From the IMG/VR virus record IMGVR_UViG_3300014565_000223: a stretch of 64,000 bases of DNA; one strand, 5' to 3'. The translations under genes and the position numbers were made by a program. Source of the stretch: a virus. This document shows positions 9,813 through 26,807 of this stretch, in pieces; position 1 is the first letter of the stretch; every line of letters begins with the position of its first letter. The notes beneath the pieces are model-generated. The model made no database searches and was not told where the DNA came from. It was given only the letters and a program-made list of their open reading frames with translations.

Positions 9813-11813
9813 ATGAACAAGATTGAAGAAATGAAAGCATTGGTTGAAAAACTTAATCAGTACCGAGATGCTTATTATAATAATGCAGAAAGTATTGTTA
9901 CGGATCATCAGTATGATGATCTGTGTGATCAGTTGGAAAAAATGGAAAAAGAAACAGGAGTTATTTTAAGTAATTCTCCAGTCCATAGTGTTGGATATGA
10001 AGTAAAAAGTAAATTAGAGAAAATTGAGCATTCACATTTAATGATGTCTCTTGATAAAACTAAAGATGTGAATATACTTCGAAAATTTATTGGTGATAAA
10101 GATTCTTTGCTAATGTGTAAGATGGATGGATTGACAATTCTTTTGACGTATGAAGATGGAGAGCTGATCCAGGCTGAAACTCGCGGAAACGGCGTCACAG
10201 GAGAAATTATTACTCACAATGCAAAGGCGTTCGAAAATATTCCTATGCATATTAATCAGAAAGGCCACGTTGAAATTGAAGGAGAAGCTATTATTACATA
10301 TACAGATTTTGAGAAAATTAATAATTTAATTAAACACGAAGAAGATAGATATAAGAACCCGCGAAATCTTGCTTCAGGATCAGTCAGACAGCTAGATAGT
10401 AAGATAGCAGCCAAACGTCATGTTCGTTTTATAGTATGGAAGGTACCTGCCGGTATGGATGAACTACCTTTAATGTCAGCAAGATTTGAAAAAGCAAGAG
10501 AACTTGGATTTGATATTGTACCCTATATTCGTGTATATAAAGAAAATCAGAATCTTGAAGAGCTTATTAATCTGTTAAAGGAAAAGGCAGCATACTTATC
10601 TTATCCAATTGATGGGCTTGTTGCTGCATATAATGATATCGCTTATGGATTATCACTTGGAGTCACAGATAAGTATCCACGTCATTCTCTGGCATACAAG
10701 TTCTATGATGATGAATTTGAGACAGTTTTGACTGATATTGAATGGACTATGGGTAAATCTGGACAATTAACGCCTACAGCAGTTTTTGAACCGGTCGATA
10801 TTGATGGAACATCTGTAAGCAGAGCGAGTCTACACAATGTGAGTATATTCAAAGGATTTTATCTCCATAAATATGATACCGTATCTGTGTATAAGGCAAA
10901 CCAGATAATTCCGCAGATTTCTCAAAACATAACAAGAGGTTATAATACCGGTGAAAAGTTTATAATTCCTAAAATATGTCCAATCTGTGGAGAACCAGTG
11001 TCTGTCGTAAAAGAGAACGATTCTGAAGTATTGATGTGCATGAATGCTGGATGCAAAGGCAAACTTTTGGGTGAGATGAATGCTTTTGTAGGGAAAAAGG
11101 CCCATGATATTAATGGATTATCTGAGGCCACATTGCAGCTATTGATTGATACTGGGCTTGTGACATCACCAATTGATCTGTATTATTTGAAGGATCATTC
11201 TACAGAATTGTCCAGATTACCTAGAATGGGAGCAAAGAAAATTGCGAATATTTTAGATTCTATTGAGTCTAGCAGGAATACTACCATAGAAAAATTTATT
11301 GTAGGATTAAATATTCCGTTAATTGGTGGTAGAGCTGCAAAGGATATTGCTAGATATGAAGAAATAAGAACCAGGGAATTAGGAATGCTATATCCATTTG
11401 AAACTTTTATTAAAGATGCTGCTTCTGATTTTAATTTTACCTGTATTGAAGGATTAGGGACGGAGCGAAATATTTCTATCCATAGATATTTTAAGGAAAA
11501 TTATGATTACGTTGTTGCTTTGGCAGAACAGTTCATATTTTCGAAACTTAATAATGATAAAATATCTTCTGAAAGCGATTCATTGTCCGGAAAGAAATTC
11601 TGTATCACTGGGAAGTTACATATTTTTGCTAACCGGGATGAACTTGTGGCGGATATAGAATCAAAAGGAGGGAAAGTTGTGTCCGGAGTTACAAAGGCAA
11701 CTGATTATCTAATTACCAATGATAAAAACAGTGGATCTAGTAAAAATAAGAAAGCTTCTGAGTTGAATATTCCTATTATCAGTGAAGAAGAATACAAAAA
11801 CAAATTAAATTAA
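9813..11813 (+). CDS. ligA: NAD+-dependent DNA ligase
   Basis: KMDGL adenylation motif, CPICGEP...C..C zinc finger, HhH region and C-terminal BRCT (GKKFCITGKL). N-terminus typical of LigA. Confidence 0.9.
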   Translation: MNKIEEMKALVEKLNQYRDAYYNNAESIVTDHQYDDLCDQLEKMEKETGVILSNSPVHSVGYEVKSKLEKIEHSHLMMSLDKTKDVNILRKFIGDKDSLLMCKMDGLTILLTYEDGELIQAETRGNGVTGEIITHNAKAFENIPMHINQKGHVEIEGEAIITYTDFEKINNLIKHEEDRYKNPRNLASGSVRQLDSKIAAKRHVRFIVWKVPAGMDELPLMSARFEKARELGFDIVPYIRVYKENQNLEELINLLKEKAAYLSYPIDGLVAAYNDIAYGLSLGVTDKYPRHSLAYKFYDDEFETVLTDIEWTMGKSGQLTPTAVFEPVDIDGTSVSRASLHNVSIFKGFYLHKYDTVSVYKANQIIPQISQNITRGYNTGEKFIIPKICPICGEPVSVVKENDSEVLMCMNAGCKGKLLGEMNAFVGKKAHDINGLSEATLQLLIDTGLVTSPIDLYYLKDHSTELSRLPRMGAKKIANILDSIESSRNTTIEKFIVGLNIPLIGGRAAKDIARYEEIRTRELGMLYPFETFIKDAASDFNFTCIEGLGTERNISIHRYFKENYDYVVALAEQFIFSKLNNDKISSESDSLSGKKFCITGKLHIFANRDELVADIESKGGKVVSGVTKATDYLITNDKNSGSSKNKKASELNIPIISEEEYKNKLN

Positions 11814-16107: not shown

Positions 16108-18729
16108 ATGAAGAACGGCTTATCAAATGAACAGGTCGAAGAGAGTCGAAGATTACATGGAAGTAACAAGCTTCCTGAACCTGAATTGAAAAAATGGTAT
16201 CATTTTGCTAAGGAAGCATTAACTGAACCAATTACTATGATTCTAATAATAATTGCTTTATTCCAGTTAGTTTTAGGAGCTATGGGAGTAATGTCTCTTT
16301 CTGAACCTGTAATGATTATAGTAGTTTTAGCTATTGTTACTGAAATTGCTGTTAAGACAGGTCTAGGCATACAGAAATCTGCAGCAGAGTTAAGAGCAAA
16401 AACGGCAGTTAGATATTGTGATGTTGTCCGAGATGGAAGCGTACAGACAATTAATAAAGATGATCTGGTAGTAGGTGATTTAGTTCTATTGAGAACTGGA
16501 CAAGAGATTTTCGCAGATGGTTTTATTGTTGAAGGAGAAATTTCTGTTAATAATGCCGCTATCAATGGAGAGACAAAAGAATGTAGAAAAATTCCTAGTG
16601 CTAATTATAAACATGTTAAAACAACATCTACTGCTGCATATACGGATCAGTGTTCTCTCTTTGCAGGAACAGTTATTATGTCTGGTGAAGGAAAAATGAT
16701 TGTTACAGATGTTGGTGTTAATACAGTTAACGGTGATACTCTTGTCAAAATGCAGACTTTAGAGCCTCCTAAGACAGCTCTTGATATTGCTCTGGATCAT
16801 TTGTGTGATTTTATTTCAAAATGGGGAACAATTGCGGCAGCATTAGCATTTGTAATTATGACAATTGCAGGTATCTTAAATGCTGGAAGTTTAAGTCAGT
16901 ATTTCTCAGGAAACATTCTTGAAAATATTCAGAAAGTAGCACAGAATACCTCAAATGCATTAACAATTATTGTTGCGGCTGTACCGGAAGGTCTGCCACT
17001 CATTGTAAAACTTGTAACTAAACAGAATGTATCGACAATGGAAAAATTTAATATTCTTGCGAAGAATACTGGTAAAATTCCTGAATTGGCGTATGTTAAT
17101 TTAATTTGTACGGATAAGACAGGAACTCTCACAACAGGTGAAATGACTCCGGTAGCTATGATCAGTGGAGATTGTCATGATATTCTTAACGAGAAAAATG
17201 CGCTCAGACAAATGATTGATGTAAATATCTGTATGAATAATAGTGCAGTATTTGATTCCAATGGAAATATTACTGGTGGAAACTCTATTGACAGAGCAGT
17301 TCTTGGTATGATTACTCCAGAAGAAGTAAATGATATCAGCAATAGATTTAATATTAAAGAAAAACTTCCATTTAGCAGTAAAAATAAATATTCTTCTATT
17401 ACGTTAAACGATGAAGAAAATAATATTCTGAAATTTTATAAAGGTGCTCCAGAGAAAATCATTGCTAAATGTACACACATTGTTGATGCAGACGCACATT
17501 TAAGGGAATTTAAAGAAGAAGATAAAAATGAACTAAAATCATATATAAAAGGTATGACAGAAAAAGCAATGAGGTGTATTGCTTTAGCGGTATCAAATGA
17601 ATCAAATGATAGTGAATTGCCAGATATGGGATTGCTTGGTGTGATTGGTGTTGTGGATCCGGTTAGAAATGAGGTGCCAGAAGCTGTGAGTATAGCACAT
17701 AAAGCCGGTATACAAGTAATTGAAATCACCGGAGACTGCATGGAAACAGCAAAAGCAGTTGCAGCAGAAGCAGGTATTTATAAACCTGGAGATCTTGCAA
17801 TTACAAATGATGAATTTGAAGCAATAACAGATGAAAAAGCGAAAGAAATTATTCCGGATTTAAGAGTAATCTCCAGATGTTCACCAAATACAAAGCTTCG
17901 TCTTGTAACATTAGCACAAGAAATTGGAATGTCTGTTGCTATGACCGGTGACGGTGTAAATGATGCGCCTGCACTAAAGAAAGCAGATGTAGGCTTTGGA
18001 ATGCAGGATGGGTCTGATGTGGCAAAAGAAGCAGCAGATATTGTTTTGACAGACAATAATTTTGCAAGTGTGGTAAAGGCAGTCGAACTTGGTAGAACAT
18101 TTATGCATAACATTATGATGTTCCTTGAATTCCAGCTGCCTATCAATATTTCGTTGTTGATCTTAAGTATGGTATTTCCAATTATTTCTGGTGGCTCTGC
18201 TCTATTAGCAGCAGTTCAGATCCTTATTGTAAATATCATCATGGATTCACTTAACTCATTAAGCTTTGGTGGAGAACCGCCAAAAGAGGAATATATGAAT
18301 GAAGAACCTATCATGAAAGGATCCGGATTATTTATCCGTGGAGCGAAAGGGAGAATTGCATTAAGTTCAATTGTATTTATTGCTTTATTTGGTGTAATTA
18401 CATTTGGTCCAGTTGGAAATATGTTTGCAACAAAACTTTCGGCTATGACAGCGAGATTCGCTTTATTGTGTTTAATGGCAGTATTTAATGGATTCACTAT
18501 TAGAACAGATAGTATGAATCTTTTCAAAGGAATTAAAAATAACAAATTATTTGTGTATATCGCATTGGGTATTTTTGCAATGACTGTAGTTTTGTGTAAC
18601 TTTGTAGGAAATCTAGTACAGACAACTCCAATGGATGTTAAACAGTGGATTATAGTCTTAGTGACAGCATTTATGGTTGTGCCTGTAGATTGGATTAGAA
18701 AAGCAATTTGTAAGAAAGGAAGTAACTAA
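16108..18729 (+). CDS. P-type cation-transporting ATPase (type II, Ca2+-ATPase-like)
   Basis: DKTGTLT phosphorylation site, PEGLP in M4, TGDxxxTA, GDGVNDAPALKKADVG hinge. ~10 TM segments; 873 aa. Confidence 0.9.
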   Translation: MKNGLSNEQVEESRRLHGSNKLPEPELKKWYHFAKEALTEPITMILIIIALFQLVLGAMGVMSLSEPVMIIVVLAIVTEIAVKTGLGIQKSAAELRAKTAVRYCDVVRDGSVQTINKDDLVVGDLVLLRTGQEIFADGFIVEGEISVNNAAINGETKECRKIPSANYKHVKTTSTAAYTDQCSLFAGTVIMSGEGKMIVTDVGVNTVNGDTLVKMQTLEPPKTALDIALDHLCDFISKWGTIAAALAFVIMTIAGILNAGSLSQYFSGNILENIQKVAQNTSNALTIIVAAVPEGLPLIVKLVTKQNVSTMEKFNILAKNTGKIPELAYVNLICTDKTGTLTTGEMTPVAMISGDCHDILNEKNALRQMIDVNICMNNSAVFDSNGNITGGNSIDRAVLGMITPEEVNDISNRFNIKEKLPFSSKNKYSSITLNDEENNILKFYKGAPEKIIAKCTHIVDADAHLREFKEEDKNELKSYIKGMTEKAMRCIALAVSNESNDSELPDMGLLGVIGVVDPVRNEVPEAVSIAHKAGIQVIEITGDCMETAKAVAAEAGIYKPGDLAITNDEFEAITDEKAKEIIPDLRVISRCSPNTKLRLVTLAQEIGMSVAMTGDGVNDAPALKKADVGFGMQDGSDVAKEAADIVLTDNNFASVVKAVELGRTFMHNIMMFLEFQLPINISLLILSMVFPIISGGSALLAAVQILIVNIIMDSLNSLSFGGEPPKEEYMNEEPIMKGSGLFIRGAKGRIALSSIVFIALFGVITFGPVGNMFATKLSAMTARFALLCLMAVFNGFTIRTDSMNLFKGIKNNKLFVYIALGIFAMTVVLCNFVGNLVQTTPMDVKQWIIVLVTAFMVVPVDWIRKAICKKGSN

Positions 18730-18730
18730 A

Positions 18731-19498
18731 ATGGGATTTTTGGGAAAATTATTCGGAAAAAAAGATGAGGAAACAGCAGTAGAGTTATCTTCTGCTGTAA
18801 CTCAGCAACCTGTATATGAAGAAAAATTACAGACAATTGATATGTCTAAGCACAATGAAAATCTTGGCAAAGTACTTATTGATATGTCTAAGGGAAGCAA
18901 GATTGATATGACAAAACATACGGCTAGAGTAGCTCTTGCAATGGATTATTCAGGAAGTATGGATTGGCTGTATGATAATGGATCTGTACAGGAAACCATT
19001 TCTCGTTTGTTGCCTATTGCTCTAAGATTTGACGATAATGGAGAACTTGAGAGTTGGCTGTTCTCAAATGGAGCAGAGCGCTTAAAAGCTGCTAACGCTG
19101 ATAATTATAGTAGTTATGTTAAAAATGTTATGAAAAAAGCTCATATGTATATGGGTGGTACTAATTATGCTCCTGTATTGAAAGAAATGGTTACATATTA
19201 TAAAGATATCGAGCCAAGTGAGATTCCAGCATTTATCATCTTTATTACAGATGGTGAGAACAGTGATACTTTTGCCACCAATGCAGTTATTAAAGAGCTT
19301 TCAGAGTACAACATCTTCGTGCAGTTCATAGGAATTGGAGATGAAGATTTTGACTATTTAAAATCTCTTGATGGTATGAAAGGTAGAAAACATGACAACA
19401 CCGGTTTTACAGCAGTAAAAGACATGAATAAAATGTCTGATGAGCAGCTGTATACAGAGATTCTTCGTCAGTATAAAGATTGGCTCAATAAAAAATAA
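18731..19498 (+). CDS. von Willebrand factor A domain protein (TerY-like)
   Basis: MIDAS-like DYSGSM; sits beside a TerD-domain gene. Confidence 0.6.
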   Translation: MGFLGKLFGKKDEETAVELSSAVTQQPVYEEKLQTIDMSKHNENLGKVLIDMSKGSKIDMTKHTARVALAMDYSGSMDWLYDNGSVQETISRLLPIALRFDDNGELESWLFSNGAERLKAANADNYSSYVKNVMKKAHMYMGGTNYAPVLKEMVTYYKDIEPSEIPAFIIFITDGENSDTFATNAVIKELSEYNIFVQFIGIGDEDFDYLKSLDGMKGRKHDNTGFTAVKDMNKMSDEQLYTEILRQYKDWLNKK

Positions 19499-19557
19499 TT
19501 CTATACTGTAAATAATAAATTATATATAAATAACGTAAATTAAAGGAGATTAAGATT

Positions 19558-20196
19558 ATGGCAACAATTAATATGAGCAAAAAACAGAAAATCAGTATGA
19601 CAAAGGAAGATGGATCTGCAGTAAAGAATTTTTTTATTGGTGTGAACTGGGAGCAAAATAGATATGCCGGAGAAGCCGATATTGATTTTGACATCAATGG
19701 AATGCTTACTAATGGAGATCGGAAGGTGACATATCCGGGAGATTTGGTAAATTATAATACATATGGAGATGGATCTGCTTATCCGTGGATTGATTATTCC
19801 GGAGATAATCTCACTGGAAATGATTCTCAGGGCATGATGTTTAATGGAAAACATTACGATGAATATTTTATTGTCCACGCAGATCAGTTTCCGGAGAATA
19901 AAACAGACTTTACCATTTGTCTTACTATTTTTAGAGCGGTACAGCGCCTTCAGAATTTTGGTATGGTAAGTAATGCAACTATAATGATCTGTGATTATGA
20001 TAATCCAGACGGAGATAAGTACGAATATAATCTGTCTGAGAATGAGAATTTTGAAAATCTGAACGCTGTAGAGATGGGAAGGCTTTATAAATACGGAGAT
20101 GGATTTAAATTCCAGGCACTTGGATCAGGATATACCGGAGGAATGACAGAATTGTTTAAGAATTTCGGTCTTGACATTGATGAGGGAAGGGATTAA
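19558..20196 (+). CDS. TerD-domain protein
   Basis: ISMTKEDGSAVKNFFIGVNWE...DIDFDINGML matches the TerD/CAPAB signature (GLgWD...DLD). Confidence 0.6.
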   Translation: MATINMSKKQKISMTKEDGSAVKNFFIGVNWEQNRYAGEADIDFDINGMLTNGDRKVTYPGDLVNYNTYGDGSAYPWIDYSGDNLTGNDSQGMMFNGKHYDEYFIVHADQFPENKTDFTICLTIFRAVQRLQNFGMVSNATIMICDYDNPDGDKYEYNLSENENFENLNAVEMGRLYKYGDGFKFQALGSGYTGGMTELFKNFGLDIDEGRD

Positions 20197-20198
20197 TC

Positions 20199-20942
20199 AT
20201 GAAAATTACATTTGGAGCAGTATTATTAATTGCTATTATTGTTGCAGCGTTTTTCTTTTTCAGAAGTAAAACAGGGAAACGAGTAAAAACAAGAGCAACG
20301 GGTACAGCAACGGAGGCTATCATTAAAGATGCCTCCACCCCGGAAGGGGCAAAAGCTTATTATAACGAAGCTATTGATGCTAAAAAGGATCAGTATAATA
20401 AGGCAAATCAGATCTATACACAGATGCTTGGCAAGATCACTTCTTATGAGGAGCAGCTTCGAGCATTACAAAAAGAAAATATGCAGCTTAATTTAAACAT
20501 TAACGCTTGTATCGATAAAGGCGATGATGAAGGGGCTAAAGTATATTTGAAGAAACAGCAGGATGCAGAAGATAAGATTGCTGTTTTAAAAGATACACTT
20601 AAAGAACTTAGATCTAATGCAACCGCTCAAAAGGAAATGCTTGACAGTGCGCTTCAGGCGGTAAATGATCTTAAGTCTGAAAAGGATAAGGCAATTCTTA
20701 CTCTTGAAACGGCGCAGGTTACAAAATCCTTACAGGTTACTCCTGGCGCTTCAGACAAGGAAGAAGACAAAATGCTTGAAGTTGTTCGTGAAGGTATCAA
20801 AAAGCAAAAAGAAGCTGCAGACGGTACAAAGGCTGCATTTGATGCATCTGCAGATGTACAGCAGAAGCGCCTTGATAAGAAGATGAAAGACGAGGCCATT
20901 GATAAGAAACTGCAGGAGTTAAAAGCAAGGAAAGGAAAATAA
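20199..20942 (+). CDS. PspA/IM30-family protein with N-terminal TM helix
   Basis: N-terminal hydrophobic helix, then a long amphipathic coiled coil with PspA-like KGDDEGAKVYLKKQQDAEDKI. Confidence 0.55.
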   Translation: MKITFGAVLLIAIIVAAFFFFRSKTGKRVKTRATGTATEAIIKDASTPEGAKAYYNEAIDAKKDQYNKANQIYTQMLGKITSYEEQLRALQKENMQLNLNINACIDKGDDEGAKVYLKKQQDAEDKIAVLKDTLKELRSNATAQKEMLDSALQAVNDLKSEKDKAILTLETAQVTKSLQVTPGASDKEEDKMLEVVREGIKKQKEAADGTKAAFDASADVQQKRLDKKMKDEAIDKKLQELKARKGK

Positions 20943-20943
20943 A

Positions 20944-21036
20944 ATGGTCGCATTAAATATGGGAACATTTGTTGTATGCCTCGCGCTTGCCTTTCTGGCA
21001 GGTATTCTGGTTACAAAAATTAAATTAAAGAAATAA
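20944..21036 (+). CDS. 30-aa hydrophobic peptide (MVALNMGTFVVCLALAFLAGILVTKIKLKK)
   Basis: ATG 2 nt after the PspA-like stop; single TM. Not in track (<60 aa). Confidence 0.3.
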   Translation: MVALNMGTFVVCLALAFLAGILVTKIKLKK

Positions 21037-21048
21037 AGGAGAAAAATT

Positions 21049-21570
21049 ATGGGATTTACATTATTTGGAGAAAAATATAAATATGAAGTAGACAGTATTA
21101 ATATTGGGATTTTTTGTCCAGATGGGACATTATTAATAGTTTTAAAACTTAAAGATGGTACATATAAATCAATTGATGTTAATCTTGGAGCAGAAAAATA
21201 TAAGTCATTATGCAAAGAGAATAACATTACAAACAATGTGCCGGTTCTTGTTACACAAGAACATGTTAATAAATTAGATAAAGAAATAAAACCTAAGTAC
21301 AAATGGGGAGACTGGAAAGAAGGTTACACTTTTTTTATGGATCCATTTTCTCGTAGAGAAAAACTATTAGTATATAATGTTAGAACTAATGGTAAGAGAG
21401 TGCAGGTAGAATTCGACGGTGTAAAAGCTATGGCTTCTTGTAATATTGAAGCAGGAGATCAATTTGATTATAAGTTTGGTAGGGAACTGGCAGAGCGAAG
21501 ATTGATTGCGAAATTGATTGAGAAACGTGCAAATTCATATTATATAAGCAAAATCAACAAAACAAATTAA
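21049..21570 (+). CDS. hypothetical protein (173 aa)
   Basis: AAGGAGAAAAATTATG RBS. Confidence 0.5.
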   Translation: MGFTLFGEKYKYEVDSINIGIFCPDGTLLIVLKLKDGTYKSIDVNLGAEKYKSLCKENNITNNVPVLVTQEHVNKLDKEIKPKYKWGDWKEGYTFFMDPFSRREKLLVYNVRTNGKRVQVEFDGVKAMASCNIEAGDQFDYKFGRELAERRLIAKLIEKRANSYYISKINKTN

Positions 21571-21584
21571 ATTAACTTTGCATA

Positions 21585-21613
21585 TTGACAAACGAAACTT
21601 GATATGCTATACT
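21585..21613 (+). promoter_or_regulatory. sigma70-like promoter TTGACA-17-TATACT
   Basis: Consensus hexamers. Part of the repeat AAATTAAATTAACTTTGCATATTGACA, upstream of the tRNA. Confidence 0.6.
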
Positions 21614-21710
21614 AAATACATAGTCAAGGATGACAACAGCACAGAGGAGTGAAAGCTCCCTGTGCTAAATAAAAAGAAGAAAGAAATTTAATTATACAAA
21701 CAATGAATGT

Positions 21711-21795
21711 AGCGGTATGATGAAATTGGCTAGACATAATAGACTTTGACTCTATTGAGCAGTAGCTCGTGTGGGTTCGAATCCCACTACCGCCG
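21711..21795 (+). tRNA. tRNA, type II (long variable arm), anticodon UUG by manual fold; atypical
   Basis: T-arm GTGGG-TTCGAAT-CCCAC. Acceptor AGCGGTA/TACCGCC with an A1.C72 mismatch. 3-bp D-stem ATG/CAT. Anticodon stem ATAGA/TCTAT with loop CTTTGAC. Variable stem-loop GAGC-AGTA-GCTC. Confidence 0.6.
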
Positions 21796-21874
21796 TTTGG
21801 CAAGTATTTTATACAAATATACTCCAGCCGAATTGCAGAGAAATATAATTTAATTATACAAAAAGGAGATAAAA

Positions 21875-22993
21875 ATGAGTAAAATTATTAGTACAGGTTC
21901 CACTTTTAGAATCTACGGAGATGATCTTGTAACACATAATCAACTTCCGGCACAAATTTATTCTATCAGATGTTCACAGATGACAGGATTTTATTTAGAG
22001 AAACATGCTGATATTGAGATCAATGAAGATAAAATATACGGTGTGCACATGGAAAAAGTAAATAAAGTATTAAATGCTTTTCCAAATTTCAATAAAAATC
22101 TTGGCGTGATCTTATCTGGAGCCAAAGGAATTGGCAAATCTTTATTTTCTAAGATTCTTGCTGTAGAAGCTGTAAAAAAAGGATTACCAGTAATTATTGT
22201 TGATACATATATCCCTGGAATTGCTAATTTTATTGAAGAAATTGAACAGGAAGTATTAGTAATGTTTGATGAGTTTGATAAAACATTTGGTAATATTAAA
22301 GCTGCTGATGGTATGGCTAATCCACAAACAGAGCTGCTTACATTATTTGATGGATTAGCTCAAGGGAAAAAGTTATATGTTATTACTTGTAATAATCTTA
22401 ATACTCTGAGTGATTATTTGGTAAATAGACCTGGAAGATTTCATTATCATTTTAGATTTGATTATCCGACAGATTCTGAAATTACAGAATATATGAGAGA
22501 CAAGTTACACGAAGAATACTATGGCGAAATTAGTAAGGTAATTGCATTCTCTAAAAGAGTCAGCTTGAATTATGATTGTTTAAGAGCTATTGCATTTGAA
22601 CTTAATACAGGCTTACAATTTCAAGAAGCAATTAAAGATATGAATATCCTTCATATAAATAATACTGTTTATATAACTACTTTGTATACTAAAGATGGTA
22701 AAAAAGATACAGAAGAAAAAACTCTTGACTTGTTTGATAAGACTTCTAATCATAGTTTATATTTTACAATAGATGGAAAATGGTTCTATACAAAATTTTC
22801 TGGTGTTGATGTAAGATATGATTTTGACAGACACATTGATTTTGTTGATGGAAAAGATGTTGAAATTATTCCGGATGAAGACTATGCGGATCTTACAAAA
22901 GAAGAAAAGAAAAAATACGAAAATATTAAAATTGATCGTATCGTTTTTGCAAGAAAAGAAGAAAAGGGACTTCATTATAATCTTTCTGTATAA
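21875..22993 (+). CDS. AAA+ family ATPase
   Basis: Walker A GAKGIGKS, Walker B IIVDTY...FDEFD. Confidence 0.6.
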   Translation: MSKIISTGSTFRIYGDDLVTHNQLPAQIYSIRCSQMTGFYLEKHADIEINEDKIYGVHMEKVNKVLNAFPNFNKNLGVILSGAKGIGKSLFSKILAVEAVKKGLPVIIVDTYIPGIANFIEEIEQEVLVMFDEFDKTFGNIKAADGMANPQTELLTLFDGLAQGKKLYVITCNNLNTLSDYLVNRPGRFHYHFRFDYPTDSEITEYMRDKLHEEYYGEISKVIAFSKRVSLNYDCLRAIAFELNTGLQFQEAIKDMNILHINNTVYITTLYTKDGKKDTEEKTLDLFDKTSNHSLYFTIDGKWFYTKFSGVDVRYDFDRHIDFVDGKDVEIIPDEDYADLTKEEKKKYENIKIDRIVFARKEEKGLHYNLSV

Positions 22994-23160
22994 AAATTTA
23001 ATTAAACATTCCGATGAATAAAAACTTTAGATATGTGGAAGTTCGGTTATAAGCATGTGGCTTTCATTTTACTTTTTACCTCTTATAACTCGTTTGAAGC
23101 AGGTCTTACGAGTATAAATAAACTGTATAAGGGTAAGCCGGTAGTAACCTTATACAATAA

Positions 23161-23240
23161 GCGGATATGACGGAACTGGCAGACGTAGAAGGCTCAAACC
23201 CTTCGGAGAAATCGTGTGGGTTCGAATCCCACTATCCGTA
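23161..23240 (+). tRNA. tRNA-Leu (anticodon CAA), type II
   Basis: Acceptor GCGGATA/TATCCGT (G1.U72). D-arm ACG-11 nt loop with GG-CGT. Anticodon stem GAAGG/CCTTC, loop CTCAAAC. T-arm GTGGG-TTCGAAT-CCCAC. Confidence 0.75.
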
Positions 23241-23592
23241 TTCGGACTATTCTTACGGATTTACTTGATGGCCTAAATAGTAATGAGGAGAAATAAGTCC
23301 GAGAGGTTAACCTGTATATTATATAGCGTCTATAGGACATTAAAGAAGATTGAAAAGTTGGTGGAATACTGGAACCCAGTGATGAGGAAGCTGCGAATGT
23401 GTTGGTTGTATGGTTTGGACGCATTGAAAGGAAACATTTATATAGATGTGCTTTGTGCTAATGAGGTTGTGAGTTGGCGTTGGAGGATGATCTGGTAGCA
23501 GATGTGTAATTAGTTATGAAGCAAAAAAGTAATTGAGTCAGCGAGGTAGAGGTGAGTGATGGGGCAACGGAATGGTGACGACTGTTCGTGTA

Positions 23593-23622
23593 GCTGATGC
23601 GATTGCATAAGCAAGTTTTTTT
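23593..23622 (+). terminator. terminator-like hairpin followed by T7
   Basis: GCTGATGC-gatt-GCATAAGC (one mismatch), then AAGTTTTTTT. Confidence 0.45.
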
Positions 23623-23675
23623 ACAGATATTGTTACATTTCTATATTGTGGGTGTAATTATAACGCCCACTACAT

Positions 23676-23749
23676 GGAAACTTAGCTCAGTTGGTTAGAG
23701 CAACCGGCTCATAACCGGTCGGTCCTGGGTTCGAGTCCCAGAGTTTCCA
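23676..23749 (+). tRNA. tRNA-Met or Ile2 (anticodon CAT), elongator-like
   Basis: Acceptor GGAAACT/AGTTTCC. D-arm GCTC-AGTTGGTTA-GAGC. Anticodon stem ACCGG/CCGGT, loop CTCATAA. T-arm CTGGG-TTCGAGT-CCCAG. G1-C72 paired. Confidence 0.85.
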
Positions 23750-23833
23750 TTAAAAGAAAAATGAAAGGAGAGATATAAAATTCTTATAAATAATCCCGTA
23801 AAAATAATAATTTAAAATAAAGGAGATTAAATT

Positions 23834-24613
23834 ATGGCTATCGTTGGTGCAATCTTAGGTGATATTGCAGGTTCACAATATGAATTTGGTAGACCAATTG
23901 ATTTAGATTGGAAGAATTGTAAGTTATTTACTGATAGATGTTATTTTACAGATGATACTGTAATGACACTTGCTGCTAAATTAGCAATTATTAATAATAA
24001 ATCTTTCTCAGATTCATATAGAGAATGGGGAAGAAAATATCCAAATGCAGGATATGGAAATAATTTTGAAACGTGGTTAAGATACGATGATGAAACTGCA
24101 TATGGAAGTTGCGGTAATGGATCTGCAATGAGATGTTCTTATATTGGAGAACATTTTAATACAGAAAAAGAAGTTATCGAATGGGCTACAAAGTCTGCTG
24201 AGTGTACACATAATCATCCAGAAGGAATTAAAGGGGCGGTTGCAACGGCAATGTGCATTTATATGGCAAGAACAGGTGTTACAAAAGCAGAAATCTATGA
24301 ATATGTGAAGAAATACTATCCAAAAGATGATTACAAATATAGTGTTGAATATAAAATTGAAGACTATAGAAAGACATATCAGTGGAATGAAATTTGTCAA
24401 GGAAGTGTACCTGTTGCAATAAGATGTTTTCTGGAAAGTGATGATTATGAAAGTTTCTTGCGAAATGTATTCTCATTAAAGTGTGATATGGATACGTTAT
24501 GTGCTATAGGTGGTGGAATTGCGGAAGAATTTTATCACGGAACTGGATTAGACAATGATTACTTACTTGGACATTACCTGAATAGACAATTGTACAGGAT
24601 TGTAGAAATGTGA
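23834..24613 (+). CDS. ADP-ribosylglycohydrolase (DraG/ARH family)
   Basis: N-terminal GAILGDIAGSQYEFG plus YFTDDTVMTLA, typical of ADP-ribosyl-[protein] hydrolases. Confidence 0.75.
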   Translation: MAIVGAILGDIAGSQYEFGRPIDLDWKNCKLFTDRCYFTDDTVMTLAAKLAIINNKSFSDSYREWGRKYPNAGYGNNFETWLRYDDETAYGSCGNGSAMRCSYIGEHFNTEKEVIEWATKSAECTHNHPEGIKGAVATAMCIYMARTGVTKAEIYEYVKKYYPKDDYKYSVEYKIEDYRKTYQWNEICQGSVPVAIRCFLESDDYESFLRNVFSLKCDMDTLCAIGGGIAEEFYHGTGLDNDYLLGHYLNRQLYRIVEM

Positions 24614-24621
24614 GGTTAGAT

Positions 24622-24807
24622 ATGAAATCTTATATAGGATCATTATTGATAGGAATACTATTATCATTAATTTTTACAATTGGTATGTCTTTTTCAAGAC
24701 TCGATATTCTTGATGATAGAAAGAGACTTGTTTTGGCTATCGGTGATTTTATTATTATGTGTATATTATTTTCGTTGTTTATTACGGGAATGTTTTTAAT
24801 AGGATAA
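24622..24807 (+). CDS. small membrane protein (2 TM)
   Basis: ATG 24622 with GAGGTTAG RBS (track start 24610 is GTG); hydrophobic. Confidence 0.4.
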   Translation: MKSYIGSLLIGILLSLIFTIGMSFSRLDILDDRKRLVLAIGDFIIMCILFSLFITGMFLIG

Positions 24808-24847
24808 TAAGTGATTTGATAGAATGTGAGATTCGAGAGGTGACAAA

Positions 24848-25162
24848 ATGAAAGTTAAGAAACTATTAATTGGATTGCTTGTATCAGGATTGGCACTTTC
24901 GTTTATTGGATGTGGTGACAAAGTTATAAATGATAAAGATGAAAAAGTTCAGTCATTCGGTCAATTTATTGGAATTAAGAAAACAAGAATCGAACTATAT
25001 GGTGTGCATATACTCAGTCAATATTTTGTATATGATAAAACCACTAAAATTGTATATGTAGTACAAAGTTCAGACCGCTATAGTGGCATTACACCATATT
25101 ACGTATTAGATGAAAATGGCAAACCAGAAATCGCAATCTATGGAGAAAATTATAATGGATAA
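24848..25162 (+). CDS. putative lipoprotein
   Basis: Signal peptide with lipobox LSFIGC; GAGAGGTGACAAAATG RBS. Confidence 0.5.
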   Translation: MKVKKLLIGLLVSGLALSFIGCGDKVINDKDEKVQSFGQFIGIKKTRIELYGVHILSQYFVYDKTTKIVYVVQSSDRYSGITPYYVLDENGKPEIAIYGENYNG

Positions 25163-25233
25163 GGAGAAAGAATAAGTACACATAATTCTGTTGTGACTGC
25201 AGTACGACAGGTCATGCATGTAAAAAAAAAAGA

Positions 25234-25303
25234 TGACATATAGTCTAACGGAAAGAACGTGGCTTTTTAAGCTGAAATATTGGTTCGAATCCAATTGTGT
25301 CAT
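25234..25303 (+). tRNA. tRNA-like element (possible tRNA-Lys UUU or degenerate tRNA)
   Basis: Clean T-arm ATTGG-TTCGAAT-CCAAT and acceptor TGACATA/TGTGTCA (one G.U), but only a weak anticodon stem (2 G-C plus 2 G.U) around loop TTTTTAA. Preceded by an A10 run. Confidence 0.35.
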
Positions 25304-25380
25304 ATTTGTAATGATGTCGCGCGGATCATTACAGAAGAAAATAGTAACTACTGAAATGTATATTTAAGGAGGCAGTAAAC

Positions 25381-25734
25381 ATGACAAAATATGATTTATG
25401 TACGGGTGATATCGTTCTTTCTACAAAGGGAAGCTACGGTATTGTGCTAATCGGAACTAATGGAGATGATCAAATCAAATGGTACAGTAATAATAAAGGA
25501 CAGGTTATTAACAGATTTAGATCTTTTTCTATGATTAACGAAGATCTTACATTTAAATATGATTTAGGTAATCGTATTATTAAGGTATGGAGAACGAAAG
25601 ACAAACATTATCTTGGTGATAAAGCAATTACAGAATATAATGCAGCAGAATGTCATGGATTTGAATGCATCTATGAAGAGTTAATTAAGGAAGTACTATG
25701 GCTGAAGTTGAAGAAAAGTTTGGCTGCAAAGTAA
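25381..25734 (+). CDS. hypothetical protein (117 aa)
   Basis: AAGGAGGCAGTAAACATG RBS. Confidence 0.5.
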   Translation: MTKYDLCTGDIVLSTKGSYGIVLIGTNGDDQIKWYSNNKGQVINRFRSFSMINEDLTFKYDLGNRIIKVWRTKDKHYLGDKAITEYNAAECHGFECIYEELIKEVLWLKLKKSLAAK

Positions 25735-25886
25735 AAATTGTAAAGTAATAAAATTTAATTATACAGGCACGTATAAATGAGGAATAGGAAATAATATTTG
25801 AAGCACTATCTTAAAAGATCAGTGCATAGATGTCAGTGTGACAATAAACTGCAAAGTTATTCCACTTCGGAAAGCGAGGTGAAATA

Positions 25887-26807
25887 ATGGAGCAGAAGAA
25901 ATTTATGGATATTCAACGTCTGAAAGAAGGATATGCAGATGGATTTGTACCGGGTGACTTAATTGTTATCCAGGAAAAATTTGATGGATCTAATGCAGCA
26001 GCTAGATATGATGCAGAGACTGGCAAAATGGTAGCTTTTTCCAGAAGACATACGTTGAATCAGAACAATACATTAAATGGTTTTTATAATTATGTGCAGG
26101 AGTTAAATCCTGAAGATTATAAAGACGTTCCGGACTATGTAATATTTGGAGAATGGTCTGGAGCAAGAAATGCGATTATTTATTATCCAGAAAATACTAA
26201 GAAATGGTACGTATTTGATATTTATGATGTAAGGGAAGAAAAATATCTTCCTCAGTCAGAAGTAAAGGCATTTGCAGAAACGCATGGACTTACATATATC
26301 AATACATTTTATGTTGGACCATTTATTAGTTGGGAACATGTGCAAAGCTTTATGGATCATCCGGGGTATGGAGAGATTCAGGAAGGAATTGTAATTAAAA
26401 ATCAAACAAGATTAAACGATCCGAATAGCAGATTACCATTTGTAGTGAAAATCGTTGGAGATAAATTTCATGAAGTTGCAAAAATGAATCATGTTAAAAA
26501 GATTCAGGATCCGCAAAAGTTGCAAGAACGAACAGAAGCACAGGAACTTGTAAAATCTGTCGTGACGCGGCGTAGAGTTGAAAAAGAGTTATATAAAATG
26601 CGTGATGAAGGAATCATCCCAACAGAGTGGTGTGAACAGGATATGAAAACTGTTGCAAGGAATCTTCCAAACAGAATTTATACAGATTGTGTAAAAGAAG
26701 AACCGGAAGTAGTTCGAGCAGCAGGACAATATTTTGGAAAATTCTGTTCCGTTATTTCGATGAATTACGCACGAGAGATTATTCTCGGTCCGACTGGAGC
26801 AAAGTAA
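25887..26807 (+). CDS. ATP-dependent RNA ligase (Rnl2-like) or small nucleic-acid ligase
   Basis: Covalent nucleotidyltransferase motifs: I KFDGSN (lysine motif), IV EGIVIK, V FVVKIVGDKF. Size and layout fit Rnl2. Confidence 0.55.
   Translation: MEQKKFMDIQRLKEGYADGFVPGDLIVIQEKFDGSNAAARYDAETGKMVAFSRRHTLNQNNTLNGFYNYVQELNPEDYKDVPDYVIFGEWSGARNAIIYYPENTKKWYVFDIYDVREEKYLPQSEVKAFAETHGLTYINTFYVGPFISWEHVQSFMDHPGYGEIQEGIVIKNQTRLNDPNSRLPFVVKIVGDKFHEVAKMNHVKKIQDPQKLQERTEAQELVKSVVTRRRVEKELYKMRDEGIIPTEWCEQDMKTVARNLPNRIYTDCVKEEPEVVRAAGQYFGKFCSVISMNYAREIILGPTGAK

Follow-up and report, generated by a model that had tools for sequence, protein, structure and literature searches.

Which amino acid does a tRNA deliver when its body looks like that of one isotype and its anticodon like that of another? 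Long variable arms are confined to the tRNAs for leucine, serine and selenocysteine and, in bacteria, tyrosine, and we know of no cellular tRNA-Gln that combines a Leu-type core with a long extra arm. The question is raised by a tRNA gene at positions 21,711–21,795 of a 64,000-nucleotide stretch of viral DNA (IMG/VR record IMGVR_UViG_3300014565_000223; the whole stretch is called the window hereafter), which we refer to as the long tRNA. With somewhat more confidence than doubt, we read its sequence as that of a working phage elongator tRNA with a Leu-type class-II core, one that decodes the glutamine codon CAA, probably CAG too, and most likely carries glutamine.

Body and ends of the long tRNA

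We searched the window for tRNA genes with ARAGORN and with the Rfam tRNA model RF00005 (Infernal), and also analyzed the fold with RNAalifold. The gene and its parts are as follows.

21711–21795, plus strand: long tRNA(UUG), 85 nt, no encoded CCA; Leu-type class-II body, Gln anticodon loop CUUUGAC, acceptor top with A1·C72, G2-C71, C3-G70 and G73
21746–21748, plus strand: anticodon UUG (ARAGORN and Rfam), reading CAA and, depending on the modification of U34, also CAG
21757–21768, plus strand: variable arm, a 4-bp stem GAGC/GCUC with the loop AGUA, within a 15-nt variable region

ARAGORN reported four tRNAs in the window, including a tRNA-Gln(ttg) at 21,710–21,796. RF00005 matched 21,711–21,795 over the full model (1–71) with 49.1 bits, against a gathering score of 29, and marked pair 1-72 as non-canonical; at gathering or E-value thresholds, Rfam contained no RNA family except tRNA that matched at or near the site. 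In the ARAGORN drawing, six Watson–Crick pairs of the acceptor stem stand under the A1·C72 mismatch, the D stem has 3 bp (AUG/CAU), the anticodon stem has 5–6 bp with the 7-nt loop CUUUGAC, and the T stem has the normal 5 bp with the loop UUCGAAU; an optional U(−1)·G73 pair would make the acceptor stem 8 bp long. The variable region, which exceeds 10 nt and forms a 4-bp stem with a 4-nt loop, and the 3-bp D stem identify a class-II architecture. These analyses bear out the original prediction, made from the letters of the window, that such an architecture goes together here with the anticodon of a Gln tRNA and a mismatch at pair 1-72. Its reservation that the fold might be shifted by a register proved unnecessary, as ARAGORN and Infernal returned the register first proposed; a false-positive tRNA and other registers are ruled out by the agreement of ARAGORN, Infernal and RNAalifold.

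The universal features of tRNAs are intact, namely U8, A14, G18G19, U33, the T loop GGUUCGAAUCC and the 7/5 acceptor-T stack. RNAalifold folded eight Leu-bodied tRNA(UUG) homologs from different phages into a five-helix cloverleaf with compensatory changes in 19 of the 25 consensus pairs, the variable arm included, whose stem covaries among the homologs as GAGC/GCUC, GGA/UCC, GUUC/GAAC and GCCU/AGGC. The minimum free energy fold of the single sequence was not significant by itself (z = −1.68), as is usual for tRNAs.

To which isotype does the body belong? We built isotype profiles (hidden Markov models with the anticodon masked) from the ARAGORN calls over all fetched loci (3,651 tRNA calls). 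The long tRNA scored 45.6 bits on the Leu profile, 23.2 on Ser, 17.5 on Tyr and 15.9 on Gln. Its Leu score exceeded that of a genuine tRNA-Leu(CAA) encoded 1.4 kb downstream (40.6 bits); as a second control, the canonical tRNA-Gln allele of sister phages, described below, scored 41.9 bits on the Gln profile. The best BLAST match among annotated phages was a tRNA-Leu(UAA) of a crAss-like phage (75.7% identity), and the long tRNA was 70% identical to the neighboring Leu(CAA), sharing with it an identical 23-nt segment of the T arm, as against 57% to the canonical tRNA-Gln allele. Tertiary elements of tRNA-Leu, A15/U48 and G18G19, can also be read from the sequence. Given the profile scores, the BLAST match and the two identities, the core of the long tRNA is Leu-type, with Leu-like D, variable and T arms.

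23161–23240, plus strand: tRNA-Leu(CAA); the Leu-type core probably came from a gene of this kind

This Leu(CAA) gene is itself only 80 nt long; it has G1·U72 and A73, and its variable region of about 11 nt forms at most a 2-bp stem (GA-GAAA-UC). The arms are reversed in this phage, the Leu tRNA having a reduced arm and the Gln tRNA a full one, and 36% of tRNA-Leu across the phage loci are shorter than 80 nt. The crAss-like tRNA-Leu that is the closest database match to the long tRNA lies, with a tRNA-Met, next to a phage tmRNA (860–1229 of locus L001, phage cr273_1). Near-identical DNA in the annotated phage database amounted to one partial match, in an unannotated 176-kb human-gut phage, which did not cover the tRNA.

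The anticodon loop and the acceptor end tell of a different isotype. The loop CUUUGAC is the same as that of the canonical tRNA-Gln(UUG) of sister phages. Bacterial Gln identity resides in G73, U1-A72, G2-C71, G3-C70, G10 and U34 U35 G36 A37 U38 (PMC9976931). The long tRNA has U34 U35 G36 with A37, and G73 with G2-C71; it departs from this set in A1·C72, C3-G70, A10 and C38 and in lacking a class-I body. In bacterial Leu identity, A73 is crucial, and the anticodon and the variable arm are not required (PMC9976931); the long tRNA has G73 and UUG instead of A73 and a Leu anticodon. Among 238 phage tRNA-Leu, none has G73, and 200 combine G1:C/U72 with A73. As to serine, the long tRNA has G73 and the long arm but, with A1·C72 and U11-A24, neither G1-C72 nor C11-G24, and its profile score is about half of that for Leu. 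Glutaminyl-tRNA synthetase (GlnRS), a class-I enzyme, reads the anticodon and the opened 1-72 pair, and the variable region faces the solvent in the known complex; given U35, a weak or mismatched 1-72 pair does not prevent charging by this enzyme.

Could the mismatched first pair be a sign of decay? We scanned viral contigs with the pattern CTTTGA, 20–30 nt, GGTTCGAATCC, which requires the exact T-loop string. Among the matches listed, 30 of the 36 unique long-armed tRNA(UUG) have U1:A72, and long-armed tRNA(UUU) and tRNA(UUC) have acceptor ends like those of canonical Lys and Glu tRNAs, respectively; the acceptor end therefore tracks the anticodon and not the arm. Also, a sister lineage has class-I tRNA(UUG) genes at the syntenic slot, which score 37–42 bits on the Gln profile; in L140 and L142 they show the very top of the long tRNA, with A1·C72, G2-C71, C3-G70 and G73, and L141 has A·A. 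Because the same top occurs in these class-I tRNA-Gln genes, A1·C72 is a recurring Gln-type acceptor end of this phage group and not damage. The acceptor top of the long tRNA (a weak or mismatched 1-72 pair, G2-C71 and G73) is Gln-type, without the A73 needed by leucyl-tRNA synthetase (LeuRS).

The class-I tRNA(UUG) genes of the sister lineage lie upstream of an ATPase gene (L140 5895–5967, L141 5895, L142 1216) and have A1·C72 or A1·A72 with G73; that of L140 has an extra U5·U68 mismatch. Each of the three phages carries two different tRNA(UUG) genes.

Two alleles in one slot, and an HNH cassette

What occupies this position in related phages? We fetched 80 related viral loci, using the gene downstream of the tRNA as an anchor.

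21875–22993, plus strand: AAA-type ATPase gene (phrog_2376), directly downstream of the tRNA; synteny anchor for relatives

Nineteen loci encode an ATPase 91–99% identical to that of the window. Fifteen of them carry the long tRNA, three (L122, L130 and L138) carry a canonical 73-nt tRNA-Gln(UUG), and one comes without the upstream region; ATPase identity is 93–99% in the 18 loci with either allele. The long tRNA is identical to that of the window in 13 loci, has two D-loop substitutions in one, and has a 1-nt T-loop deletion in another. The last copy (GGTCGAATCC; L128, 5837–5922) reflects either a sequencing error or an inactivated gene. In the alignment, a promoter, a leader hairpin and the leader are the same up to a few bases before the tRNA; either allele follows, and then the shared ribosome-binding site of the ATPase gene.

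21585–21613, plus strand: promoter-like site, sigma-70-type TTGACA-17 nt-TATACT with a TG extension; common to long- and canonical-allele phages
21637–21666, plus strand: leader hairpin, CAGCACAGAGGAG-UGAAAG-CUCCCUGUGCU, between the promoter and the tRNA

A second lineage, with 59% ATPase identity, has undergone a similar exchange in a slot that differs from that of the window: L140 has an 85-nt homolog where L141 and L142 have a canonical tRNA-Gln. The anticodon arm and the T arm of this homolog are the same as in the long tRNA of the window. The flanks of L140 and of L141/L142 are identical up to nucleotide 6–7 of the tRNA, which places the junction inside the acceptor stem; the L140 tRNA thus joins the acceptor stem of the resident tRNA-Gln (UGGGGU..., U1-A72 and G73) to a Leu-type core. 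The L140-type tRNA and its neighbors are also present in an isolate assembly of Ruminococcus sp. AM36-2AA, which suggests a clostridial host and fits the sigma-70-like promoter and the strong Shine–Dalgarno sequences.

Across the 15 close loci, the tRNA has one variable column out of 85, the promoter and leader 8 out of 150, the 3′ flank 2 out of 79 and the ATPase gene 51 out of 621. Since the whole cassette is young, this conservation is modest evidence, and the covariation in the eight homologs is a stronger argument for constraint. The long tRNA is the only tRNA-Gln in the window.

How might one allele have replaced the other? In L134 and L140, an open reading frame (ORF) lies directly 3′ of the long tRNA (about 690 bp in L134), the translation of which combines a C-terminal helix-turn-helix with an HH..N..CxxCH motif. 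The ORFs of the two loci share 66% identity (E = 2e-110), and their Pfam HNH match is weak (18–20 bits, below the cut-off of 21.4). The HNH ORF is absent from the canonical-allele loci, and this presence/absence polymorphism with sharp junctions is what is expected of a homing cassette. At two separate sites in the phage genomes, the long tRNA and the HNH gene stand as a pair in place of a canonical tRNA-Gln, and the junctions fall at the tRNA or within it. The window retains a trace of the gene.

21797–21853, plus strand: HNH ORF remnant, a TTG start and about 14 codons (MASILYKYTPAELQ); homology stops near 21840, a deletion junction

The window is identical to L134 up to ...GAATTGCAGA, beyond which L134 runs on into the HNH ORF, and the long tRNA is unchanged in 13 loci and in the window after loss of the HNH gene. 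In many tRNA clusters of phages, related HNH genes lie no more than about 20 nt from a tRNA, also beside other long tRNA(UUG) genes. By analogy, the HNH–tRNA arrangement is the pattern of free-standing homing endonucleases. From these two replacements and their junctions, we infer that canonical tRNA-Gln genes are the target of the putative HNH enzyme, which would be unable to cut the Leu-type core.

Transcript, surroundings and long-armed tRNAs elsewhere

The site at 21,585–21,613 matches the promoter consensus at 11 of 12 positions, is the best such site within 20,000–26,500, and is kept in all aligned relatives. It was initially described as the tRNA's own consensus promoter; the site is indeed there, but it is not private, as it probably also serves the downstream ATPase gene. 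No terminator-like site was seen between the tRNA and the ATPase gene at 21,875, and the two are therefore probably on one transcript. The leader folds at −22.3 kcal/mol. Its hairpin is unique in the window and nearly invariant in both alleles; it has no match in Rfam, and it may be a processing or stability element. A 16-nt motif stands on either side of the tRNA.

21685–21700, plus strand: copy of the 16-nt motif AATTTAATTATACAAA, ending 10 nt before the tRNA
21847–21862, plus strand: second copy of AATTTAATTATACAAA, 13 nt upstream of the ATPase start codon

A target-site duplication was considered for this direct repeat and ruled out, since the motif recurs 13 times upstream of genes in the window. 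With up to two mismatches allowed, these 13 matches compare with 0.74 expected, and they lie nearly always on the coding strand, 13–45 nt upstream of start codons (plus-strand positions include 4199, 4608, 9782, 12526, 14626, 21685, 21847, 25752, 28286, 39588 and 45383). Judged from this distribution, AATTTAATTATACAAA looks like a phage-specific promoter or 5′-untranslated-region element.

The window (33% GC) is an all-plus-strand part of a large gut phage, with genes for a DnaE-type polymerase, a RecD-like helicase, TerD/vWA proteins and an RNA ligase. Directly upstream of the tRNA block, at 16,108–20,942 on the plus strand, are encoded a P-type cation ATPase (873 aa) and vWA-TerF-like, TerD-domain and PspA/IM30-like proteins. 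An ADP-ribosylglycohydrolase (23,834–24,613) and an Rnl-type RNA ligase (phrog_548; 25,887–26,807), both on the plus strand, are interleaved with the four tRNA genes in a way reminiscent of tRNA-repair or counter-defense modules. Within 16–41 kb, which holds the RNA ligase, the ADP-ribosylglycohydrolase and a replication module, no phage aminoacyl-tRNA synthetase or tRNA-modifying enzyme was seen near the tRNAs. By analogy with such neighborhoods, the RNA ligase and the odd tRNAs make a role in evading tRNA-directed defense plausible. One of these tRNAs, tRNA(UUU) at 25,234–25,303 on the plus strand, is a weak call (43.2 bits): its anticodon stem is poor, with G·U and G·A pairs, its acceptor stem may reach 8 bp, and its variable loop is short. 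Its masked isotype is ambiguous (Arg 22.9, Cys 20.7, Gln 20.3 bits), and close relatives have Cys(aca) or Cys(gca) calls there.

Class-I anticodons on long-armed tRNAs turn up repeatedly in viral contigs but seldom in cellular genomes. ARAGORN called a tRNA(ttg) of 82–92 nt in at least 54 viral loci (54 of the 118 matches listed), some with Gln-type bodies and an inserted arm and others with Leu-like D arms. The variable regions of 34 of the 36 unique long-armed tRNA(UUG) fold into hairpins of at least 3 bp, compared with 39% of shuffles. In a prokaryote scan with one genome per species, three such tRNAs were found among the 120 matches listed, all inside phage-like tRNA clusters, so that the first assessment of a class-II body with a Gln anticodon as abnormal holds for cells. 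Our full-text literature search found no description of long-armed tRNA-Gln or of long-armed phage tRNAs of class-I isotypes, and a 2020 review of non-canonical tRNAs makes no mention of long-armed tRNAs of class-I isotypes (PMC7609411).

Are long arms tied to particular anticodons? The share of long forms among the matches listed is 54/118 for UUG, 52/120 for UUU and 27/119 for UUC, versus 7/120 for GAA and 0/119 for UGC. The idea that long arms are specific to the xm5s2U34 tRNAs for Gln, Lys and Glu, the classic targets of anticodon nucleases, was nevertheless withdrawn, as counts of bystander tRNAs show no such bias. At the same loci, bystanders of at least 80 nt make up about 1–17% of every class-I isotype (Gln 3.4%; Gln, Glu and Lys 3–6%; Asn, Cys, Ile, Trp and Thr 10–17%). 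Since such forms occur in every class-I isotype, and since many tRNA-Leu are short as noted above, variable-arm length seems to be plastic in phage tRNAs generally.

Viral loci L201–L439 (for example L209–L280) encode many Lys (UUU) and Glu (UUC) tRNAs of 82–94 nt with hairpin-forming variable regions; some of the long Lys tRNAs have Tyr/Ser-like D arms (CCCGAGCGG) and U73. A 90-nt long-armed tRNA with the amber-suppressor anticodon CUA is encoded at 11,106–11,195 of L144, a viral contig of 140 kb, within a cluster of 27 tRNAs; the ATPase of this contig shares 52% identity with that of the window.

Decoding role, alternatives and known systems

What, then, would the long tRNA do? We propose that the sigma-70-like promoter drives it as the 5′ part of the ATPase transcript, that RNase P and a 3′ processing enzyme would excise it, that the host would add CCA, and that host GlnRS would charge it. 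Its origin may lie in the cassette: the HNH enzyme would cut canonical tRNA-Gln genes of co-infecting phages, and repair would copy in the endonuclease gene plus the Leu-type core, which would be too divergent in sequence to be cut. The odd body would thus mark a cleavage-immune, functionally equivalent allele. In the window, the endonuclease gene would later have been deleted and the tRNA retained. The window contains 163 CAA and 284 CAG codons, 447 Gln codons among 16,669, so systematic misreading would hit the phage's own proteins. In its 51 long ORFs, CAG accounts for 64% and CAA for 36% of Gln codons, although A-ending codons are otherwise favored (AAA 71%, GAA 76%); the UUG anticodon of the sole phage tRNA-Gln pairs best with the rarer codon, CAA.

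Several points weigh against this proposal. Three determinants of E. coli GlnRS are replaced, G10 by A10, G3-C70 by C3-G70 and U38 by C38, the last also in the canonical allele. In a host without GlnRS, a non-discriminating glutamyl-tRNA synthetase (GluRS) with GatCAB might accept the tRNA poorly on account of its large Leu-type D loop. In some systems, Ser identity centers on a long variable arm with G73 (PMC7609411), and in some a change from A73 to G73 can switch Leu to Ser (PMC9976931). Among these very similar relatives, the leader and the 3′ flank are as conserved as the tRNA, which leaves tRNA conservation as only modest evidence of selection. The presumed HNH target site is deduced from the junction positions only, and a selfish cassette could spread a poorly working tRNA.

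A bolder version, which we put forward tentatively and consider less probable than not, is that this is a natural class-II tRNA charged with Gln, with a bacterial GlnRS or GluRS/GatCAB accepting a Leu-type core with a long arm; that its architecture has been selected as invisible to a tRNA-Gln-directed nuclease, either the cassette's own HNH enzyme acting on DNA or a host defense enzyme acting on RNA, or both; and that it is one of a largely undescribed, virus-enriched set of long-armed tRNAs of class-I identity.

The original prediction had suggested a recoding, misreading or decoy tRNA. Recoding does not agree with the sense anticodon UUG and with ORFs that are intact under code 11. Misreading and decoy roles are unlikely as well, in view of an acceptor end that is Gln-type and not Leu-type and of the allelic relation to a canonical tRNA-Gln(UUG) in the same slot.

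The decoy idea in its fullest form is that the Leu-type core and the arm hide a Gln decoder, or a non-translating mimic, from a defense nuclease directed at tRNA-Gln, or soak that nuclease up, the homing cassette being only the vehicle. The surroundings lend it some color, since the gene belongs to a block that includes other odd tRNAs (Leu, Met, Lys), the RNA ligase at 25,887–26,807 and the ADP-ribosylglycohydrolase and that resembles tRNA-repair or counter-defense islands; so does the abundance of long-armed tRNAs with class-I anticodons in viral contigs (54/118) relative to cellular genomes (3/120), among the matches listed. However, no tRNA-Gln-specific nuclease is known, nor has one been identified for this host, and the canonical allele serves sister phages well at 3 of 18 informative loci. 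In the bystander count, Gln, Lys and Glu tRNAs show no excess of long arms over those for Asn, Cys, Ile, Trp and Thr, and the anticodon loop, the usual cleavage site, is the same as in the canonical allele. We regard this reading as improbable.

Still less probable, in our judgment, is a mistranslating tRNA that LeuRS or seryl-tRNA synthetase (SerRS) charges regardless of the anticodon, so that Leu or Ser is inserted at CAA and CAG throughout the proteome, a deliberate or tolerated misreading as with allo-tRNAs, nev-tRNAs and the Candida tRNA-Ser(CAG). The body would suit it, with 45.6 bits for Leu, 23.2 for Ser in second place, and A15/U48 and G18G19 present; SerRS recognizes a long arm with G73 in some systems (PMC7609411, PMC9976931), and allo-tRNAs with non-Ser anticodons are charged by identity elements and not by the anticodon (PMC5389517). 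Also, CAA is under-used, at 36% of Gln codons in a genome of 33% GC. Set against this, the crucial LeuRS determinant A73 is replaced by G73, which occurs in 0 of 238 phage tRNA-Leu; serine identity would call for G1-C72 and C11-G24, which the long tRNA lacks, and its arm has the size of a Leu arm. The top of its acceptor stem is that of the class-I tRNA-Gln of the sister lineage, the L140 homolog has the acceptor stem of the resident tRNA-Gln (UGGGGU, U1-A72), and the long tRNA and the canonical tRNA-Gln swap behind the same strong promoter. Moreover, the phage would have to tolerate the misreading of 447 Gln codons in its own genes, in this window alone.

We give an equally small chance to a non-functional or barely functional hitch-hiker, that is, a chimeric tRNA-like sequence carried by a selfish HNH cassette that destroyed a good tRNA-Gln gene and is now decaying. 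The coupling to a homing-type endonuclease gene, the 1-72 mismatch and the T-loop deletion in L128 would all fit such a history, and the low overall divergence weakens the argument from conservation. Yet all universal tRNA features are intact, the helices have been kept by compensatory changes between lineages of only 59% ATPase identity, the tRNA has stayed unchanged in 13 loci and the window after HNH deletion, the A1·C72/G73 top recurs in a separate class-I tRNA-Gln, and this gene is the sole tRNA-Gln of the window. A stop-codon suppressor or an alternative code can be dismissed, as the anticodon is UUG and 54 ORFs of at least 150 aa tile the plus strand under table 11 with TAA, TGA and TAG all serving as stops.

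If the long tRNA does have glutamine identity, a synthetase that never meets a long arm in cells tolerates one, and nature provides a case of a tRNA that crossed from one class to the other as it changed isotype. Charging with Leu or Ser would make it a mistranslation device encoded by a phage, an even more surprising outcome. Near-isogenic phages that differ in which of the two alleles follows the shared promoter offer a natural control for charging, decoding and fitness. The coupling to the HNH gene suggests a general route by which selfish nucleases drive the structural diversification of phage tRNAs.

Among known systems, the nearest is the canonical tRNA-Gln(UUG) of L122, L130 and L138, which shares with the long tRNA the CUUUGAC loop, G73, G2-C71, a weak first pair, the promoter, the leader and the slot, and presumably the decoding job. 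The canonical form is a class-I tRNA of 73 nt with a 4–5-nt variable loop, the D arm UCGCCAAGCGGUAAGGCA, U1-A72 and G10, whereas in the long tRNA the D arm is Leu-type, the variable region spans 15 nt and contains a 4-bp stem, and A1·C72 and A10 are present. Bacterial-type tRNA-Leu, such as Leu(CAA) and the crAss-like Leu(UAA), resembles it in its D arm (UGAUGAAAUUGGCUAGACAU) and T arm and in variable-arm geometry, and differs from it in the anticodon, in A73 instead of G73 and in having no mismatched first pair. Recruitment, or remolding, of tRNA genes by anticodon change is known from E. coli tRNA-Arg to Thr and from mitochondrial tRNA-Leu genes. Here, too, a tRNA of one isotype has apparently come to decode, and probably to accept, another amino acid through changes in the anticodon and the acceptor end, but the shift crosses the boundary from class II to class I with the long arm kept, and recombination with resident tRNA-Gln acceptor stems was apparently involved beyond point mutation.

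Allo-tRNAs and nematode nev-tRNAs, class-II-like tRNAs charged at odds with their anticodon, likewise unite a long variable arm with the anticodon of a class-I amino acid, and some allo-tRNAs occur in phages (PMC5389517). Allo-tRNAs have 8/4 or 9/3 layouts and Ser or Ala identity elements and are thought to mistranslate or suppress (PMC5389517), whereas the long tRNA is 7/5 (or 8/5 with U(−1)·G73) and has an acceptor end that matches its anticodon isotype. Its 5-bp T stem, 3-bp D stem and UUG anticodon exclude both the allo-tRNA layouts and that of tRNA-Sec (8/5, 6-bp D stem, UCA). For the cassette, the closest parallel is SegB of phage T4, a free-standing homing endonuclease in the phage tRNA region (PMC2330249, PMC13096335). 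In both cases an endonuclease gene lies beside tRNA genes, is present or absent between related phages, and has flanking tRNA markers co-converted with it. SegB is a GIY-YIG enzyme, whereas the enzyme here is a putative HNH protein with a C-terminal helix-turn-helix, and the co-converted marker here has the same tRNA function as the allele it replaces but a different structure.

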